NCBI GenBank assembly: GCA_016188965.1 | Contig: JACPGT010000013.1 | Location: forward strand, 66 to 64,065 | Direction: 5' to 3' | Origin: Candidatus Micrarchaeota archaeon | GTDB taxonomy: Archaea; Micrarchaeota; Micrarchaeia; Norongarragalinales; Norongarragalinaceae | Length of the DNA stretch: 64,000 nucleotides | Shown: positions 1,001 to 49,941 of the stretch, one piece after another | How the letters are laid out: every line of letters begins with the position of its first letter | How positions within the stretch are numbered: position 1 is the stretch's first letter | The notes under the pieces: model-generated | What the model was told of the DNA's origin: nothing | The model's database searches: none | What the model saw: the letters and a program-made list of their open reading frames with translations, nothing else | Position numbers and translations under genes: made by a program

Positions 1001-1235
1001 GGTTCTATCCCACCCCTTTTGTTTTTGCAACCCGTACGGTACGGGTTCAAAATGCTACTACGCACGGTGTAGAACGGGGCGTAAAAGCCATCCGGCGGAC
1101 GTCGGACGACGAATGGAATTGTTCGGTTTTGAACAAGGCCAAAGGCCCGTATGGCCGCAGCCCGTCGGAAAAATACCCGGCTTAAGGAAGACGCGAAATC
1201 ACGCATGCACGCCTTTACCAAGGAAGTTCTCACAT

Positions 1236-1286
1236 GGTCGCCCCGGGGGAAGCGTCCCCCTGGAGCGCCCTGCTCCTCGCCCCCTC
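1236..1286 (+). repeat. solo copy of 51-nt GC-rich hairpin repeat (family M1: GGTCGCCCCGG-hairpin-CCTGG...CCTCGCCCCCTC)
   Basis: Near-identical to 38702..38752. Related, on the opposite strand, to 49778..49832, where the hairpin stem differs by compensatory changes. Confidence 0.7.
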
Positions 1287-1301
1287 ACAAAAGCCGAGGA
1301 A

Positions 1302-2720
1302 TCACGAATGAACCCCTTTGCCTAGAAAATTCTCCATCGCTTCGGTCAAACCTTCGGACAAAGTAGGGTGTGGATGTATGCTCAAGGCGAAGTCTTCCAC
1401 GGACGCGCCCAATTCGATGGCCAAGACGGCCTCGCCGATGAGTTCGCCGGCATCCGGGCCCACGATCTGCACGCCCAAGATAGTGTTGTCCTCCGAAGCG
1501 ACGACTTTGACGAAGCCGTCACCGGCATTCATCGATAAGGCGCGGCCGGAGGCTTGAAACGGAAATTTGGCCGCCTTGACATGCAGGCCTTGCTTCTTGG
1601 CCTCTTCCTCACTTAAGCCGGCGGAGGCGATTTCCGGGTCGCAGAAGATGACGGAGGGAATGACTTTGGCCAAAAACGCCACGTTGTGGCCCGCGGCATG
1701 CTCGCCAGCGACTTTTCCCTCCAAATAGGCCTTGTGAGCCAAAAGGGGCCCGCCTCGGACGTCGCCGATGGCATAAATATGCGGCTGGTTCGTCTGCATG
1801 CTGATGTTCGTCACGATAAACCCCTTGGAATCGGTCTTGACCCGCGCTTTTTCCAACGCTAAGCCCTCGACGTAAGGCCGGTGGCCCACGCAGACGAGAA
1901 CATAGTCCGTGTAGACGTTGCCGCCGGACGTGCGGACCGTCAAAGCCGCGTCACCGCCTACTTTTTGGCCGGCGGACGGCGTGGTTTCGGAATATCCTTC
2001 CACTTTACAATTGAGCTTGAGTTCGACGCCGAGTTCCTTCATGCGTTTTTCCAGAAGCTTCCGCGTTTCGTTGTCCGCCTGCGGCAAGAACGAAGGCATT
2101 CCTTCCAAAATGGTGACGTGCGATCCGAGTTTGGCGTACATGAAGCCCAACTCCAGGCCGATGTACCCCGCACCGATGACCACGAGGCGCTTGGGAATCT
2201 CCGTCAATTCCAAGGCCTTGCGGGAATTCCAGATGCGGGCCTGGCGGTACGAAAAACCGGGAATCTCGATGCTTTTCGAACCCGTGGCGATGATGGCTTT
2301 GCCGAATTCGATGCCTTGCTTGCCGTCCGGCAGATGGATCAAGGCGCGGTTGGGCGATTCGAACTGGGCCACGCCTTGGATGACCGTCACGCCGCGCTTT
2401 TGGCACAAGTGCTCGATGCCGCGGCAGAGCTGGCCGACGACCTTTTCCTTCCAAGCCCGAAGTTTAGCCACATCAACGGAAGTCGAAGCCGTAAGCCCGA
2501 TTTCTTCGGCGTGGCGGGCGTCTTCAACGAAGTTGGCGGCGTGAATGAGCGTCTTGGAGGGGATGCAGCCGTAGTGGAGGCACATGCCGCCGAGGCGTTC
2601 CTTTTCCACCAACGTGACGGACTTTCCTAAGGCAGCGGCTCGAAGGGCAGCCACGTAGCCGCCGGGTCCGCCGCCGATGACGAGTAAGTCGGTCTGTTGG
2701 GGTAAGTCACCCATCACCAT
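1302..2720 (-). CDS. lpdA: dihydrolipoamide dehydrogenase (E3)
   Basis: GGGPGGY FAD-binding motif, redox-active CLHYGCIPSK disulfide and C-terminal HPHPTLSE interface motif. 472 aa. Confidence 0.93.
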   Translation of the reverse strand: MVMGDLPQQTDLLVIGGGPGGYVAALRAAALGKSVTLVEKERLGGMCLHYGCIPSKTLIHAANFVEDARHAEEIGLTASTSVDVAKLRAWKEKVVGQLCRGIEHLCQKRGVTVIQGVAQFESPNRALIHLPDGKQGIEFGKAIIATGSKSIEIPGFSYRQARIWNSRKALELTEIPKRLVVIGAGYIGLELGFMYAKLGSHVTILEGMPSFLPQADNETRKLLEKRMKELGVELKLNCKVEGYSETTPSAGQKVGGDAALTVRTSGGNVYTDYVLVCVGHRPYVEGLALEKARVKTDSKGFIVTNISMQTNQPHIYAIGDVRGGPLLAHKAYLEGKVAGEHAAGHNVAFLAKVIPSVIFCDPEIASAGLSEEEAKKQGLHVKAAKFPFQASGRALSMNAGDGFVKVVASEDNTILGVQIVGPDAGELIGEAVLAIELGASVEDFALSIHPHPTLSEGLTEAMENFLGKGVHS

Positions 2721-2745: not shown

Positions 2746-4353
2746 TCAGATGTCGCCCACGAGCAAACCCTCGGGATTTTCCAAGTGCTTCTTGACTTCC
2801 ATAACGAACAACGCGGCCGCCGCGCCGTCGTTCAGCCGATGGTCAAAGGTTAGGCACAACGGGAGGAATTGGCGGGCCTCGACTTTGGGCGCGGATTTGG
2901 ACGGCTTGGCCTTGGAATCGGTTGCGTTCTTTTTCGCGGGCGCAAAGGCCGGCCGCGTCTGCATGCGCATGACGCCTAAAATCGCGGCTTCCGGAGGGTT
3001 GATCAGCGGCGTAGCATAGATGCCGCCCGCGGAGCCGATGTTGGTGATGGTGAACGTGCTGCCGGACAACTCGTCGGCCTTCAGACTGCGCTCTTTTGCC
3101 TTGGTGGCCAACAACTGCACTTGTTGGGCGATGTCAAAGACCGACTTTTTGTCCGCGTCCTTCAACACGGGTACCATCAGACCGATGGGCGTGTCCACGG
3201 CGATGCCCACGTCATAATACTTCTTCAACACCACTTCGCCTTTTTCATCGTCCAACGACGCGTTGAAGTCTGGAAACTCCTGCAATGCCTTGCACACGGC
3301 CTTGACCACGAACGGCAACAACGTCAGCTTGACGCCCTTCTCGTCAGCGTGGACTTTCTCTTTTTCGCGGATTTTCCAAAGCTCGGTGACGTCCGCCTCG
3401 TCCACGTGCGTCACCGTCGGCAAGGCCGCGGACCAACTCAAGCGCTCGGAAATGATTTTGCGGACCGGAGTGAACGGCTTGCGGATTTCCGTGCCGTAAG
3501 GACGGGATACTACATGGATGCGGCGAGTGGCAGCGGAAGGCGCGGGCACCGATACGGAAACGGGGGATGCCGGAACGGAAGCGGCAGTCGGAGCCGATGC
3601 GGACATTGCCGTGGATTGCGGGGCGTTCGCGTTGCGGACGTCGTCCTCCGTGATGCGGCCGCCGGTGCCCGAACCTTGGACGCGGCCCAAGTCGACGCCC
3701 AATTCGAACGCCAGTTTCCGGACCGACGGAGCGGCCTTGATCAAGGCCGGATGAATCGACGGACCTGCCGCAGCCTGGCGGTATTGACTGGATGAGGCCG
3801 GAAGCTCAGATGAAGCGCCTTGGGCATCCTTTGAAGCGGAACTCTTCGCGGACTGCACATCACTTTCCGTGACGAGGCCACCCGGACCGCTGCCGTTCAC
3901 GCGATTCAAGTCCACGCCGAGTTGTTGCGCCAACTTGCGGACGGCTGGCGTGGCCTTGGGCGCGGACGTTGCCGAAAGCGAAGCGGAAGTCGGTGCCGAA
4001 ACCGGGGGCTTGGATACCGGGACGGTTGGCGAAGAAGACGTTGTGACCGGCGCGGCGGGGGAAGAAGGGTGGCCGGAAGATACCGCGGAAGCCGTGACAG
4101 CGGGAATGGATTCACCGGGCTGGCCCACGGTGACCAAAGAGTCGCCCACGTGCATGATTTGGCCGACGGATGCGTGAAGCTTCAGGACGGTGCCGGTCTT
4201 GGATGAGGGAATCTCCACGACGGCCTTGTCCGTCTCGATTTCGCACAACGGCTGATCTTCTTTGATGGCCTCGCCTTCCGCAACGCGCCATTGGACGAGT
4301 TTCCCCTCGTGGATGCCTTCGCCTACGTCGGTGAATAAGATTGTCTCGGCCAT
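2746..4353 (-). CDS. dihydrolipoamide acyltransferase (E2): one lipoyl domain, two peripheral-subunit-binding domains, catalytic domain
   Basis: Lipoyl-lysine motif EIETDKA. Two PSBD-like segments (PAVRKLAQQLGVDL..GSGPGG and PSVRKLAFELGVDL..GSGTGG). Catalytic DHRLNDGA motif. Start taken at ATG 4353 (MAETILF), 8 nt after the E1-beta stop; GTG 4374 is the alternative. Confidence 0.9.
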   Translation of the reverse strand: MAETILFTDVGEGIHEGKLVQWRVAEGEAIKEDQPLCEIETDKAVVEIPSSKTGTVLKLHASVGQIMHVGDSLVTVGQPGESIPAVTASAVSSGHPSSPAAPVTTSSSPTVPVSKPPVSAPTSASLSATSAPKATPAVRKLAQQLGVDLNRVNGSGPGGLVTESDVQSAKSSASKDAQGASSELPASSSQYRQAAAGPSIHPALIKAAPSVRKLAFELGVDLGRVQGSGTGGRITEDDVRNANAPQSTAMSASAPTAASVPASPVSVSVPAPSAATRRIHVVSRPYGTEIRKPFTPVRKIISERLSWSAALPTVTHVDEADVTELWKIREKEKVHADEKGVKLTLLPFVVKAVCKALQEFPDFNASLDDEKGEVVLKKYYDVGIAVDTPIGLMVPVLKDADKKSVFDIAQQVQLLATKAKERSLKADELSGSTFTITNIGSAGGIYATPLINPPEAAILGVMRMQTRPAFAPAKKNATDSKAKPSKSAPKVEARQFLPLCLTFDHRLNDGAAAALFVMEVKKHLENPEGLLVGDI

Positions 4354-10182: not shown

Positions 10183-10302
10183 GCGGCTGTGGTCCAGTGG
10201 CATGATACGACCTTCCCATAAGCCGGGATAAACGCCCCGAAAATACGCCTTGAACCGGCTTGGAATCAGGTTGAGATGCGGGTTCGATTCCCGCCAGCCG
10301 CA
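10183..10302 (+). tRNA. tRNA-Gly(CCC) with canonical 49-nt intron (10219..10267)
   Basis: Hand fold: acceptor GCGGCTG/CAGCCGC, T arm GCGGG-TTCGATT-CCCGC, anticodon stem CGACC/GGTTG, loop TTCCCAA after splicing, 4-nt variable loop, discriminator A. Perfect BHB: 4-bp central helix TTCC/GGAA, 3-nt bulges, 7-bp inner helix AAGCCGG/CCGGCTT. T-run follows. Confidence 0.85.
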
Positions 10303-33678: not shown

Positions 33679-34680
33679 ATGACGGCTAACTCCAAAGCGG
33701 CCCCAGAATCCGCATCGCAAACCTCCGCTGACGAAAAACACGACCATGAAGACCCCGAGCACGCCAGCCACGGCCACGCACATGCCGGCCACCACGGCGA
33801 CACGCTCAAGCATTACCTTGAAGCCGCCCGCGTCGCCGTTTCCGTCCGGTCCTTTGCCGAAGACTACGTCAAGCCCGGATTGAAGCTGTTGGACATCGCC
33901 GAGAAGATCGAAGCCGAAATCACCGAACAAGGCGCCGCCCCGGCGTTTCCCTGCAACCTGTCGCTCAACGAGGAAGCCGCGCATGACACTCCCCTGATCG
34001 GCGATGAACGCGTCCTGAAGGATTCCGACGTTTTGAAAGTCGACTTCGGCGTCCACGTGGAAGGCCACATCGTGGACCAGGCATTCACCGTCAACTTCGA
34101 CAACCAACACGCCAAGATGATCGAAGCGGCGCAACAGGCGCTGCAGGACGCGTTGAGCGTGATGAAAGCCGGAGCCAACGTGCGCGACGTAGGAGCGGCC
34201 ATCGAAGAAGCCATCGTCACGCGCGGCTTTCAGCCCGTCGAAAACCTCTGTGGCCACAGTTTGGCGCCGTACGTCGTGCACGCAGGCGTTTCCGTGCCGA
34301 ACGTGCCGCGCGGCGATTACGTCTTTCAGGAAGGCGACGTGTTCGCCGTAGAGCCGTTTTGCACCAACGGAGGCGGCAAGGTGACCGACGGACAGCTGGA
34401 TGAGATTTTTTCCATGGTGCAGGAAAAACCCGTCCGCCTGCCGCAGAGCCGCAAAGCCGTCGAATTCATCCTCGAGAAATACCAGACGCTTCCGTTCGCC
34501 CGCCGCAACCTACTGCCCGCGCTCGGCTCGCAAGCTTCGGTGGACCTGGCGGTGCGCGACTTGACGCGCCAAGGCATCCTGCACGACTACCCGGTGTTGG
34601 TGGAAATCAACAAGGGAATGGTGGCACAAGCAGAGACAACGGTCATCGTCGAAAAAGACGGAATCAAAGCACTCGTCTGA
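33679..34680 (+). CDS. map: methionine aminopeptidase, type 2 (archaeal), with His-rich N-terminal extension
   Basis: Pita-bread motifs (FPCNLSLNEEAAH, LKVDFGVHVEGH, GHSL, FAVEPF, AQAETTVIV). ATG at 33679; the track ORF extends upstream over the FKBP gene on the opposite strand. Confidence 0.88.
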   Translation: MTANSKAAPESASQTSADEKHDHEDPEHASHGHAHAGHHGDTLKHYLEAARVAVSVRSFAEDYVKPGLKLLDIAEKIEAEITEQGAAPAFPCNLSLNEEAAHDTPLIGDERVLKDSDVLKVDFGVHVEGHIVDQAFTVNFDNQHAKMIEAAQQALQDALSVMKAGANVRDVGAAIEEAIVTRGFQPVENLCGHSLAPYVVHAGVSVPNVPRGDYVFQEGDVFAVEPFCTNGGGKVTDGQLDEIFSMVQEKPVRLPQSRKAVEFILEKYQTLPFARRNLLPALGSQASVDLAVRDLTRQGILHDYPVLVEINKGMVAQAETTVIVEKDGIKALV

Positions 34681-34728
34681 ATTCGCGTTTTTCTTTTGGT
34701 AAAGCTTTTCTTCGAAAAGAAAAGGTTT

Positions 34729-34809
34729 GTCGACCTCAACAAGGGTATGGTAGCACAGGCGGAAACGACGGTCATCGTCGAAAAAGATTCCGTTAAAGCG
34801 CTCGTGTAA
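34729..34809 (+). repeat. second copy of the last 26 codons + stop of map (VDLNKGMVAQAETTVIVEKDSVKALV*)
   Basis: 81 nt, the same length as the genuine 3' end (34600..34680). By hand alignment it has 18 nt differences, 10 of them synonymous codon changes. Preceded by hairpin 34705..34724. Confidence 0.85.
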
Positions 34810-34912
34810 AACAAAAACCTTTCTTTTGGTAGAGCCAACAAAATCGCTTTGCGAATTTGAGGGATCTGCAAAGCTCTGCTTTGCATGTCTTTTCTTTGGA
34901 AAGAAAAGGTCT

Positions 34913-34993
34913 GTCGACCTCAACAAGGAAATGGTGGCACAAGCCGAAACCACCGTTATCATTGAAAAAGACGGCGTCAAAGCACGGGTTTGA
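34913..34993 (+). repeat. third copy of the last 26 codons + stop of map (VDLNKEMVAQAETTVIIEKDGVKARV*)
   Basis: 81 nt with 16 nt differences from the genuine end, 8 of them synonymous codon changes. Preceded by hairpin 34889..34908. Confidence 0.85.
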
Positions 34994-35173
34994 AACACTC
35001 CGCGTTGCTGTGGCATCGGCACAGGCAGTCGTCCGTAAAAAAAACCCATCCTGCGTCGCCCTTCGTTTCCGTCGGTCCTCTCCCGTCAGAGACCCGTCTT
35101 GCCTCCGTCGCGCGGTTTTCGGCAAAGCCAGCCGCCGGCACAACTTTTTATAGCCCCTTGACGTAAGGCCACC

Positions 35174-38675: not shown

Positions 38676-38697
38676 AAAACGGGCCCGACGGGATTTG
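38676..38697 (-). repeat. 22-nt exact duplicate of the 3' end of tRNA-Arg (T-loop to trailer)
   Basis: aaaacgggcccgacgggatttg is identical to 38833..38854. Confidence 0.9.
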
Positions 38698-38832
38698 CAA
38701 CGGTCGCCCCGGGGGACGCGTCCCCCTGGCACGGCCTGCGCCTCGCCCCCTCGAATTCGCGTGCAAATTCAAAGGGAGGGGTCAGGAGAACCGTGAAACT
38801 GGGGGAACCGTAGGTTCCCGCGGTTCCGGCGC
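38698..38832. mobile_element. 135-nt insert between the tRNA-Arg 3' end and its duplicate; ends are imperfect inverted hairpin repeats (M1 at 38702..38752, M2 at 38774..38832)
   Basis: Flanked by 22-nt direct repeats. The same repeat family sits at the tRNA-Ile locus in the opposite orientation. No ORF. Confidence 0.4.
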
Positions 38833-38836
38833 AAAA

Positions 38837-39005
38837 CGGGCCCGACGGGATTTGAACCCGCAACCTGCTGGTTTCTCCCACTAGGAAAGAAAGCCAATAA
38901 TGCCGTTCTCTCCCAAGATCGAAGCCTCGGCTTCCGAAGAGGCCTTAAAAGCTTGAAAGCCGGTATTCGGAACCAGCCGCTCTATCCTGGTTGAGCCACG
39001 GGCCC
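38837..39005 (-). tRNA. tRNA-Arg(CCG) with canonical-position 94-nt intron (38873..38966)
   Basis: Hand fold: acceptor GGGCCCG/CGGGCCC, D arm GCTC-AACCAGGATA-GAGC, anticodon stem GCTGG/CCAGC, loop TTCCGAA after splicing, variable AGGTT, T arm GCGGG-TTCAAAT-CCCGT, discriminator G. The BHB central helix is TTCC/GGAG. Confidence 0.85.
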
Positions 39006-49027: not shown

Positions 49028-49567
49028 CTAGTTCTCTTGGAAAGACTGGAAGATGGATTCGTAAAGAGCGCTGTTGGAGGTGAACGTGTTCTTCAACGAA
49101 CCAACGATCACCAAAAACACCTTGCCCGGGCTTTTCTTTGATTGGATCACCACGGCTTTCCTCTTAACCCCAATATCGTCTTGCGGTTCTAAAACCACGG
49201 CATGGGCATCGTAACCATTAACCACAGTAGGGCCGTCGAAGACGACGTCGATCGTCCCGGCGTTCTGCTCCGCCGCGCCATCCTTCATGCCTGCCACCAA
49301 AGTTGACGCAAGGTCCTTAAGCGACATTTTTTCCACGCTGTTGTCGTGGCTTGCCACCCGAATCTCCTCTCCATAAGATTCGATCTGAACGGAATAAACT
49401 TCGTCAGGCGTCTCATGCACGCTCCAGCCTTGCGGATATTTGATCGAAAAACCGGCGTCCGGACTCGCGAAAGTCGCAAGTTTGCTCGAGGACGGAGTTT
49501 GAACGTTCTGGACGCAACCTGCCAAAAACAGGGCGAAAAAAAGAGCAACGGCAATTAAAGCGTTCAT
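49028..49567 (-). CDS. lipobox-bearing secreted protein (PsbP/DUF1795-like guess)
   Basis: Signal MNALIAVALFFALFLAGC. FSIKYPQGW...beta-rich body. Confidence 0.5.
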   Translation of the reverse strand: MNALIAVALFFALFLAGCVQNVQTPSSSKLATFASPDAGFSIKYPQGWSVHETPDEVYSVQIESYGEEIRVASHDNSVEKMSLKDLASTLVAGMKDGAAEQNAGTIDVVFDGPTVVNGYDAHAVVLEPQDDIGVKRKAVVIQSKKSPGKVFLVIVGSLKNTFTSNSALYESIFQSFQEN

Positions 49568-49610
49568 GTAATCGCCAAAGCGGGCGTGAATTAAAGGCTT
49601 TTGATAAAAA

Positions 49611-49625
49611 GGGCCCGGGGAGATT
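49611..49625 (-). repeat. 15-nt exact duplicate of the 3' end of tRNA-Ile
   Basis: gggcccggggagatt is identical to 49836..49850. A T-run follows on the minus strand. Confidence 0.8.
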
Positions 49626-49834
49626 TGTAACCGGAACCGCGGGGAGGAACGCCTTCCCTCAGTTTCCGCATAAGTCTTCGGAGGACTTATGGGACCCGCA
49701 AATTCAGCAGAATTTGCACGGTCACGTTCTTCCGGAGCCCCACCCTAACGAATGCATTGCGAATCAGAAAAGGGAAGGAGGCGAGGCCCAGGGCGGGCCA
49801 GGAGGAAACCGTAGGTTTCCTCCGGGGCGACCAA
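49626..49834. mobile_element. about 210-nt hairpin-rich insert between the tRNA-Ile 3' end and its duplicate (M2 at 49631..49669, M1 on the opposite strand at 49778..49832)
   Basis: Same end motifs as the tRNA-Arg insert but inverted relative to the tRNA. Inner perfect hairpins CATAAGTC..GACTTATG and GCAAATTC-AGCA-GAATTTGC. No ORF. Confidence 0.4.
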
Positions 49835-49941
49835 TGGGCCCGGGGAGATTCGAACTCCCGACCGCTCGATGTCCAAAGGTTCAGGCATGTGCCGGAACGC
49901 ATTATCAGTCGAGTGCTCCAACCAGGCTAAGCTACGGGCCC
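49835..49941 (-). tRNA. tRNA-Ile(GAT) with canonical 32-nt intron (49871..49902)
   Basis: Hand fold: acceptor GGGCCCG/CGGGCCC, D arm GCTT..GAGC, anticodon stem CTCGA/TCGAG, loop CTGATAA after splicing, variable CGGTC, T arm GGGAG-TTCGAAT-CTCCC, discriminator A. Confidence 0.85.

Follow-up and report, generated by a model that had tools for sequence, protein, structure and literature searches.

A small non-coding element with a target-derived duplication at the 3' end of a Micrarchaeota tRNA-Ile gene, and its relatives at other gene ends

The insert behind tRNA-Ile and its empty counterpart

The stretch of DNA analysed here, referred to as the window, comprises 64,000 nucleotides of the Candidatus Micrarchaeota archaeon assembly GCA_016188965.1 (contig JACPGT010000013.1, positions 66 to 64,065). 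Two proteins encoded in it match NCBI entries under the name of this archaeon at 100% identity. On its minus strand lies an intact tRNA-Ile(GAT) gene that is followed by a hairpin-rich insert and by a spare copy of the 15 nt that precede the discriminator of the tRNA. The insert is built around two structured motifs, M1 and M2. The features of the locus, from the tRNA outwards, are as follows (related loci are designated by L and a number).

49835..49941, minus strand: tRNA-Ile(GAT), the intact target gene (Rfam RF00005, 55.1 bits)
49836..49850, minus strand: repeat copy 1, inside the working tRNA-Ile (exact match to 49611-49625; single-copy at L168)
49774..49832, minus strand: M1 of the tRNA-Ile insert (covariance model R1, 72.2 bits, E=2e-13)
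49718..49773, minus strand: linker between M1 and M2, with a T-run and a GGGTGGGG box (sequence reading)
49669..49717, minus strand: two extra perfect hairpins interrupting M2 (sequence, fold and tail comparison)
49631..49669, minus strand: M2 (..GAAACTGAGGGAAGGCGTTCCTCCCCGCGGTTCCGG), the distal end of the insert (matches M2 at tRNA-Arg)
49611..49625, minus strand: repeat copy 2, the spare tRNA 3' end (exact, 15/15)

The tRNA-Ile gene (GGGCCCGTAGC...CTGATAA[intron]TCGAG...GGGAGTTCGAATCTCCCCGGGCCCA) carries an intron of ~32 nt in the anticodon loop. Repeat copy 1 covers the end of the T-loop, the 3' strand of the T-stem and the 3' strand of the acceptor. The 5' end of M1, GGTC, lies 3 nt downstream of the tRNA 3' end, and the motif continues as GGTCGCCCC, hairpin 1, CCTGG, hairpin 2 and CCTCGCC(T)CC. 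Close behind M1 the linker holds a minus-strand TTTT at 49768-49771; the linker and its GAGGGAGGGG box are common to the copies at tRNA-Ile, at a tRNA-Arg gene of the window and at L120. The two extra hairpins (CATAAGTC..GACTTATG and GCAAATTC-AGCA-GAATTTGC) were missing from the tRNA-Arg and L120 copies when the tails were compared. M1, the linker, the extra hairpins and M2 together make up the 210 nt between the 15-mer copies. No open reading frame (ORF), terminal inverted repeats or integrase fragment was seen between the repeats when the sequence was read. The 15-mer GGGCCCGGGGAGATT occurs only twice in the window (49611 and 49836), even at 2 mismatches. The repeat can be extended to 18 nt at one mismatch (..GGGCCC[A/T]TT) and to 33 nt with divergence (25/33 identical).

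A preliminary description of this DNA had reported a 15-nt duplicate of the tRNA-Ile 3' end around a hairpin-rich insert of ~210 nt, a T-run behind the distal copy and two extra perfect hairpins. On re-reading the sequence all of its coordinates proved correct: the duplicate is exact at 49611-49625 and 49836-49850, the hairpins lie at 49669-49691 and 49698-49717, and the minus strand behind the spare copy resumes with the original T-run (TTTTT, 49606-49610) and then the original downstream flank.

The protein encoded next to tRNA-Ile (window 49028-49567) has a 65% identical homologue in the metagenome-assembled genome (MAG) JACQQD01, at locus L168. There, ATTTCCAAAAACCTTTAATTCGCGCCCCGC and the gene start come immediately after the orthologous tRNA-Ile, which also has an intron, with no insert and a single copy of the 15-mer. 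The matching flank in the window, TTTTTATCAAAAGCCTTTAATTCACGCCCGC, lies behind the spare 15-mer. As L168 has the same tRNA and flank, no insert and one 15-mer, the window arrangement arose by insertion with target duplication. MAG JACQQD01 carries M1 elsewhere (L088, L103), and its tRNA-Ile site is empty. The tRNA-Ile arrangement was base-for-base identical in four independent assemblies, which excludes an assembly error. Look-ups of exact proteins from around the loci of the window yielded identical strains only.

The M1 family and the duplications that flank it

Two further M1 copies were found in the window.

38676..38854, plus strand: sister insertion at tRNA-Arg(CCG) (Rfam, covariance model, repeat 22/22 identical)
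1188..1334, plus strand: third M1 copy (1236-1287) with a diverged 44-nt duplication (model R1, 71.8 bits)

The tRNA-Arg insertion consists of the spare repeat (38676-38697), M1 (38702-38753), a linker, M2 (~38784-38829) and the repeat within the tRNA (38833-38854); the gene itself occupies 38837-39005 on the minus strand and has an intron of ~95 nt. This M1/M2 element is inverted relative to its tRNA and thus has the opposite orientation to the tRNA-Ile copy. Alignment and the covariance model upheld the earlier claim that the same element sits at both tRNAs, flipped relative to the tRNA. The repeats of the third copy (1188-1231 and 1291-1334) are identical at 34/44 positions and comprise the last 10 codons and stop of a dihydrolipoyl dehydrogenase gene (1302-2720, minus strand), encoding ENFLGKGVHA-stop and ENFLGKGVHS-stop. 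Its own 44-nt duplication had previously gone unnoticed, and with dozens of copies elsewhere it answers the earlier concern that the genome might hold no further copies.

With a tightened DNA pattern, matches came from 43 loci in metagenomes and from three in two MAGs of Candidatus Micrarchaeota; viral contigs had none. With a looser first pattern run on a genome collection, 115/118 loci were chance matches in GC-rich bacteria and only L016, L088 and L103 were real. The range of M1 as sampled is therefore Micrarchaeota and groundwater contigs, a description of the sample rather than a taxonomic limit. By the covariance model, the window contains 3 copies (68-72 bits) and the related loci another 47 (60-76 bits), and these correspond to 34 distinct contexts.

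Alignment of 31 distinct M1 sequences gave the order GGTCGCCCC, a GG-hairpin 1 of variable length, CCTGG, a 5-bp hairpin 2 and CCTCGCCCC. The GC-rich core is 52-70 nt long, with the fixed 5' end GGTCGCCCC and the 3' end CCTCGCCCC(C)T(T/C)C. Judged from the alignment and the tails, the termini are direct rather than inverted repeats (TCGCCCC at both). The hairpins covary across the 31 copies: 91.7% of cells were paired with 27 two-sided changes, a result reached by 0/500 shuffles, and pairing dropped to 52-70% in slid-register controls. An RNAalifold consensus with long-range pairing of the M1 5' end was not adopted, and the two-hairpin structure was tested explicitly instead. Rfam 15 contained no family for the insert; besides the tRNAs all matches had E>0.7, far below gathering scores, and a known RNA family was therefore rejected as its identity. 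Phage and plasmid records held nothing similar to the M1 insert, leaving a virus or plasmid origin unsupported. M1 is multi-copy and non-coding, and it is present or absent between related genomes. Its lengths vary in steps that are not multiples of three, which would place it out of frame, and general translation of M1 was rejected on this ground.

M1 occurs alone or with a subfamily-specific tail. The tail subfamilies have their first 9-25 nt in common (CCCTCAAAxTxG.., CCTTCCTTTTGATTC..), and tails are short at protein-gene sites (0-41 nt) and long at tRNA sites. One 52-nt tail was found at two different tRNAs (L127, L142), and the M1-linker-M2 composite at three (Ile, Arg, L120); since tails recur at different tRNAs, M1 and its tail move as a unit. 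A T-run lies 5-15 nt behind M1 in 6/6 loci in which M1 is oriented like the tRNA. This T-run probably replaces the displaced tRNA terminator, and the tRNA-Ile transcript probably now ends at the T-run just after M1.

M2 can insert on its own. Its CGCGGTTCCGG motif is also present in L120 and, without M1, in L138, where an M2-only element of ~100 nt lies at a tRNA 5' end (~1290-1470, minus strand). The 17-nt duplication of this element consists of the first bases of the tRNA, and L171 (~2930-3010) is its empty site. The tRNA-side end of the element holds TTAAAAAAG, ~30 nt upstream of the tRNA start, which might serve this tRNA as a promoter.

To assess the flanking repeats across the family, the 200 nt before M1 were locally aligned with the 450 nt after it, with 600 random positions as the control.

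Score of at least 28: 31/34 M1 contexts, 15% of controls
Score of at least 34: 27/34 M1 contexts, 2.8% of controls
Score of at least 40: 22/34 M1 contexts, 0.8% of controls

Direct duplications of local DNA, 14-91 nt long, thus flank M1 in 31/34 contexts. One copy always ends 0-7 nt before GGTC, and the other starts after a tail of 0-154 nt. Many repeats are identical (L103a 38/38, L153 53/53, Arg 22/22, Ile 15/15). The tRNA-Ile repeat by itself scores 34, and it is therefore the empty site and the family context, not the lone 15-mer, that carry the case against chance. Chance matching, raised earlier as an objection, was not borne out in view of the four identical assemblies, the empty orthologous site and the 600-position control.

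The targets fall into four classes.

tRNA 3' ends, from T-loop to trailer, both orientations: 14 contexts
Last 10-26 codons and stop: L016, L160, L103a, L130, L119, L129, L148, L137, L153, window copy 1, L134, L175
Ribosome-binding site, start codon and first 10-22 codons: L123, L131, L126, L144, L150
Cleavage-site region of pilin-like leader peptides: L124, L145, L159

All tRNA duplications begin in the T-loop, and tRNA genes account for 14/34 contexts, far above their share of the genome. Because the duplication spans the gene end, the gene that is hit retains a complete end. Insertions also struck the same gene ends independently in separate lineages, at tRNAs in either orientation. At one orthologous tRNA (3' end ..TCCCCCCTCCTCCA), L120 has a long-hairpin M1 with M2, oriented like the tRNA, and L157 has a short-hairpin M1 that points the other way and bears a different tail. 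Duplication length differs even at one gene end; in L129 and L148, at the same protein-gene end, the inner junctions are 32 nt apart. The re-used targets and the tRNA share point to a real preference for gene ends, besides selection against disruptive insertions. The preliminary description had argued that the duplicate was copied from the local target and not carried by the element, and this agrees with the single copy in L168 and the local-sequence repeats in 31/34 contexts. Its view that neither a simple tyrosine-integrase attachment (att) site nor a fixed-length duplication fits also stands, given duplications of 14-91 nt, many targets, both orientations and no integrase.

Empty and filled sites were compared at further loci. 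An element occupies the dehydrogenase 3' end in the window, L134/L138 and L175, and the site is empty in L169 (the closest relative, 90% protein identity), L171 and L173; L103b is filled, and the orthologous site in L130 is empty. Together with the tRNA-Ile site (15-18 nt) and the M2-only element in L138 with its empty site in L171 (17 nt), the dehydrogenase site (44 nt) shows duplications that are single-copy when empty.

Several individual targets show variations on this pattern. In L153, a decayed M1 (GGTTAAGTCCGTTTGCTCGCCCCCTTCC) lies ~60-90 nt before the M1 start (oriented), ahead of the spare copy, and the perfect 53-nt duplication starts within its 3' end; the decayed M1 implies a second insertion at the same gene end. 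In L119 (6382-6512), the duplication ends just before the stop codon, and the end of the functional gene is shifted by five codons to a TAG within M1 (..LRKKGGEA-stop vs ..LRK-stop). In the pilin-like genes of L145 (4921-5059) and L159 (122-238, oriented), M1 lies in frame between duplicated RGQGT[IF]EY leader cleavage motifs and would read GRPGGSVPL[AE]RP[GA]PRPL. The start codon sits only upstream of the first copy, so this insertion must leave with the leader peptide. Behind tRNA-Leu and M1 in L121 (~1250-1400) and L088 (5040-5150), the tail closes with a diverged tRNA 3' half (variable arm and T-arm), and the L121 acceptor end (CGGGCCCA) mismatches the adjacent tRNA-Leu, as if from another tRNA. 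A weak M1-like match of 32 bits in L171 (3165-3220, minus strand) lies near a second partial copy of the tRNA 5' end (ACGACTAGAGC), ~190 nt away from the tRNA itself, and may be an old insertion that has been rearranged.

How the element may insert

We consider it likely that the tRNA-Ile insert is a copy of a small non-coding, non-autonomous family of Micrarchaeota (DPANN) mobile elements that targets gene ends and is moved in trans. Its identity as a mobile element with a target-derived duplication is secure, and we infer the integration mechanism as follows. An enzyme encoded elsewhere in the genome would join both element ends to two target positions on opposite strands, tens of bases apart, one at the gene boundary and the other inside the gene. 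Filling in of the gap would then create the duplication, by analogy with casposon or CRISPR-spacer integration, with no fixed ruler. Insertions that fail to regenerate an intact gene end would be purged by selection. The spare copy may stay coding-like through exchange, that is by gene conversion, by deletion between the repeats or by recombination with element-free alleles; a deletion between the repeats would turn the spare copy into the working copy.

The coding character of the spare copies shows in the differences between paired copies, 101/130 of which fall in one codon phase per locus (null mean 65.6, maximum 79 in 20000 permutations). In L137, ~20 nucleotide differences leave the 26 encoded residues unchanged between the two copies. 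Among orthologous spare copies (L016/L160, L123/L131, window/L134), nearly all differences are synonymous. Five four-way comparisons gave 3, 3, 2, 11 and 4 sites at which the two copies within each genome are alike but the genomes differ, and 2, 0, 2, 0 and 0 old copy-specific differences. As copies within a genome agree against the other genome, gene conversion or re-insertion must be frequent. The spare copy of L175 has indels, indicating that decay happens too. A diversity-generating retroelement with a template/variable pair was rejected because the differences lie at third codon positions and not at adenines, and read-through translation of the spare copy in L137 was rejected because its frame differs.

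Several points weigh against this explanation. In each of the 13 distinct protein genes, M1 has the intact gene on its 3' (tail) side and the spare copy directly next to GGTC, regardless of whether the start or the stop of the gene was hit; L103b, the only opposite-orientation copy at protein genes, has no duplication and lacks GGTC. At about half of the junctions there is one extra nucleotide 2-3 nt before GGTC, such as GGATTTG[C]AAC ahead of GGTC vs GGATTTGAAC, and TTCTC[A]CAT ahead of GGTC vs TTCTCCAT. The constant gene side and the extra nucleotide count against plain cut-and-fill, since such a model predicts neither. Spare copies are also more coding-like than passive duplication should leave them. 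We know of no transposase with duplications varying over 14-91 nt, and the staggered-joining step is an analogy and not a finding. The moving enzyme is likewise only a proposed machinery acting in trans; the ~430 kb of related loci showed no autonomous relative that has M1-like ends, no solo half-elements and no M1-bounded ORFs. The empty and filled genomes are fairly distant (65% identity for the protein neighbouring tRNA-Ile), such that gain and repeat-mediated loss look alike at any one locus. Finally, the collection was made with an intact-motif pattern, which under-samples decayed or atypical copies. The extra nucleotide can be seen in the window at, for example, 38698 and 1232, and at tRNAs it lies between T55 and C56 of the spare T-loop.

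More tentatively, M1/M2 elements may represent an undescribed archaeal mode of transposition, in which a structured 55-nt DNA or its transcript is inserted specifically at the boundaries of transcription units with no fixed distance and duplications of 14-~90 bp, and in which the repeats allow frequent reversible loss, so that purifying selection acts on both copies of the gene end. We regard this as possible rather than probable. If true, it would be the first tractable multi-copy system for the unexplained bacterial 'insertion with long target duplication' seen since 2000, and a Cas1-like integrase without a ruler, or an RNA-templated step, could be involved.

Two live alternatives concern the mechanism, and neither changes the identity of M1 as a mobile element. 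The first is copy-choice during replication or repair, with no transposase: a nascent strand stalled at a gene boundary would switch to an M1 template, either DNA or an RNA with a defined GGTC 5' end, copy it to the end and switch back upstream, thereby duplicating the interval. In its favour are the constant orientation to the gene body at the 13 protein genes and the single extra nucleotides near GGTC, which are typical of template jumps. It also agrees with the variable duplication length and with a fixed 5' end combined with a variable 3' extent, the tails resembling nested prefixes, and the hairpins and G/C runs of M1 are plausible fork barriers. The targets, however, share no consistent microhomology with GGTC at the 5' junction, unrelated targets (L127/L142) have the same discrete, subfamily-specific 3' ends, M1 is found at tRNAs in both orientations, and any reverse transcriptase or donor transcript is hypothetical. 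We judge copy-choice unlikely, though it is the strongest of the rivals.

The second is cycling of the Campbell type, in which M1 and one repeat would leave as a small circle or as transferred DNA and re-enter by homologous recombination at the same gene end elsewhere. The two repeat copies would then be of different lineages. This would suit the concentration of paired-copy differences in one codon phase (101/130), the L137 copies with their shared 26 residues despite ~20 differences and the occupation of the same gene ends in several lineages, and it would read the within-genome identity at sites that vary between genomes as ongoing exchange. The first insertion at a new target is left unexplained by such cycling, however, and the identity of many repeats is what a recent duplication made on the spot would give. 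Homologous recombination would not work efficiently on repeats as short as 14-22 nt, a circle of 70-250 bp is physically difficult, and no junction of such a circle was seen. Campbell-type cycling therefore appears quite improbable, and staggered joining by an enzyme acting in trans remains our preferred account.

That the insert is instead a functional RNA feature of the tRNA locus, such as a T-loop intron, an alternative 3' half or a small RNA transcribed along with the tRNA, is very doubtful. Many unusual tRNA introns occur in Micrarchaeota and 3/3 tRNAs of the window have introns; the structures of M1 and M2 are conserved. The preliminary description had proposed folding the transcript to see if the spare end could serve as an alternative 3' half. 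Thermodynamically this is possible, as the 5' acceptor strand of the tRNA pairs with either copy at similar predicted energy (-142.8 vs -141.4 kcal/mol), but the idea gained no supporting evidence beyond that. The orthologous tRNA-Ile of L168 does without the insert, the spare copy has no T-stem 5' partner and its T-loop part is altered, and the same element lies antisense at protein-gene ends. In a permissive bulge-helix-bulge scan, the candidates within the exact repeat all rested on self-pairing of GGGCCC flanked by 2-bp helices, and none was convincing. The T-run behind M1 and the lack of an Rfam match also speak against an RNA feature.

Weakest of all is a relic of integrase-mediated integration (attL/attR of a virus or plasmid, mostly deleted since), which we dismiss as extremely improbable: tRNA 3' ends are classical archaeal integration targets, and elements of this kind lie between direct repeats of the tRNA 3' part, as described for restriction-modification units and prophages (PMC2853133), but the same 55-nt M1 lies at >20 different gene ends, each with repeats of local sequence, in both orientations and also at protein-gene 5' ends, the whole insert is just 210 nt in four assemblies, and there is neither an integrase fragment between the repeats nor similarity to phages or plasmids.

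Relation to known systems

Small non-autonomous elements are known, as are rare insertions with long target duplications. M1/M2 is non-autonomous mobile DNA that we assign to no named family, and its duplications are explained by no known transposon family. The literature searched held no description of a high-copy family whose insertions always restore the end of the target gene.

One close bacterial parallel is insertion with long target duplication, seen since 2000 and surveyed by Furuta, Abe and Kobayashi (2010, PMC2853133); its mechanism was given as unknown, and the survey retained no archaeal case. Like M1, those inserts have no mobility gene of their own and lie between direct repeats of tens of bases; the empty allele has one copy of the repeat, which often overlaps a gene or tRNA gene at its 3' end. 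Unlike M1, they are kilobase-sized, bacterial restriction-modification gene units, each a single event. M1 is a non-coding structured repeat of 55-210 nt with many copies, a fixed 5' end and a preference for gene ends, and M1/M2 carries the structured repeat only, with no restriction-modification or other gene unit.

Casposons, for example that of Aciduliprofundum boonei (PMC5137440), are archaeal and target a tRNA 3' end, including the segment coding for the T-loop, with a 15 bp duplication. This is the length found at tRNA-Ile, whereas the M1 family ranges over 14-91 nt and also hits protein genes. The casposon mechanism, two staggered joinings followed by fill-in, would yield the pattern seen at M1. 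Casposons are, however, large elements with terminal inverted repeats and with genes for Cas1 and a family B DNA polymerase, and their duplication, made at one site, is fixed at 14-15 bp. M1 elements, in contrast, hold no ORF in their 55-210 nt, lack inverted termini and hit many targets, protein-gene 5' ends among them.

IS1630 (IS30 family) of Mycoplasma fermentans, as cited in PMC2853133, uses terminator-like inverted repeats as its target and makes variable duplications of 19-26 bp. It thus resembles M1 in targeting structures at gene ends and in its variable duplication, and differs in being autonomous and bacterial, in having a transposase and inverted ends and in its much narrower duplication range. 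MITEs (miniature transposable elements with inverted repeats) and the repetitive extragenic palindromic elements and bacterial interspersed mosaic elements (REP/BIME) are, like M1, short, non-coding, structured, multi-copy, gene-adjacent and presumably moved in trans. MITEs have terminal inverted repeats and short fixed-length duplications, and REP elements make no target duplication; M1, with directly repeated termini and long variable duplications, falls outside both definitions. Tyrosine-integrase elements in tRNA genes share with M1 the direct repeat of the tRNA 3' part and the intact gene, but carry an att core for one tRNA, a fixed orientation and an integrase gene. Elements of the IS200/IS605 or REP type are common in Micrarchaeota (PMC13343696). 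Single-strand transposition of the IS200/IS605 or REP type was rejected because such elements make no target duplication and need a fixed tetranucleotide that the M1 junctions lack. An analogy to IS91 or integrons via the GTT of the T-loop is unsupported, as this GTT is target-derived.

With tRNA 3' and 5' ends and protein-gene starts and stops among its targets, the family offers dozens of independent events and empty sites from which integration rules can be read. It bears on the tolerance for mobile DNA of ultra-small DPANN genomes with almost no intergenic space. As mobile stretches of identical sequence, the copies may also promote recombination from one lineage to another. Furthermore, they explain annotation oddities such as spurious partial tRNAs, short duplicated ORF ends, extended C-termini and insertions in pilin leader peptides.

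The tRNA genes of the window present an annotation problem of their own. A default ARAGORN run reported no tRNA in the window, in which Rfam identified three, at 10183-10302 (plus strand), 38837-39005 (minus strand) and 49835-49941 (minus strand). All three bear introns, which is why the default run misses them, and routine annotation of this genome will therefore omit tRNAs.

Three minor observations concern other repeats and neighbouring genes. A 109-nt unit is present in three tandem-like copies at 34576-34997 of the window (67-80% identical). A diverged repeat pair at 47-366 and 657-976 (610-nt spacing, 72-82%) overlaps ORFs and probably represents paralogous genes. Directly upstream of the dehydrogenase gene, a toxin-antitoxin-like pair of HEPN and nucleotidyltransferase genes is present in L171 (631-1292) and L175 (772-1475) and absent in the window.

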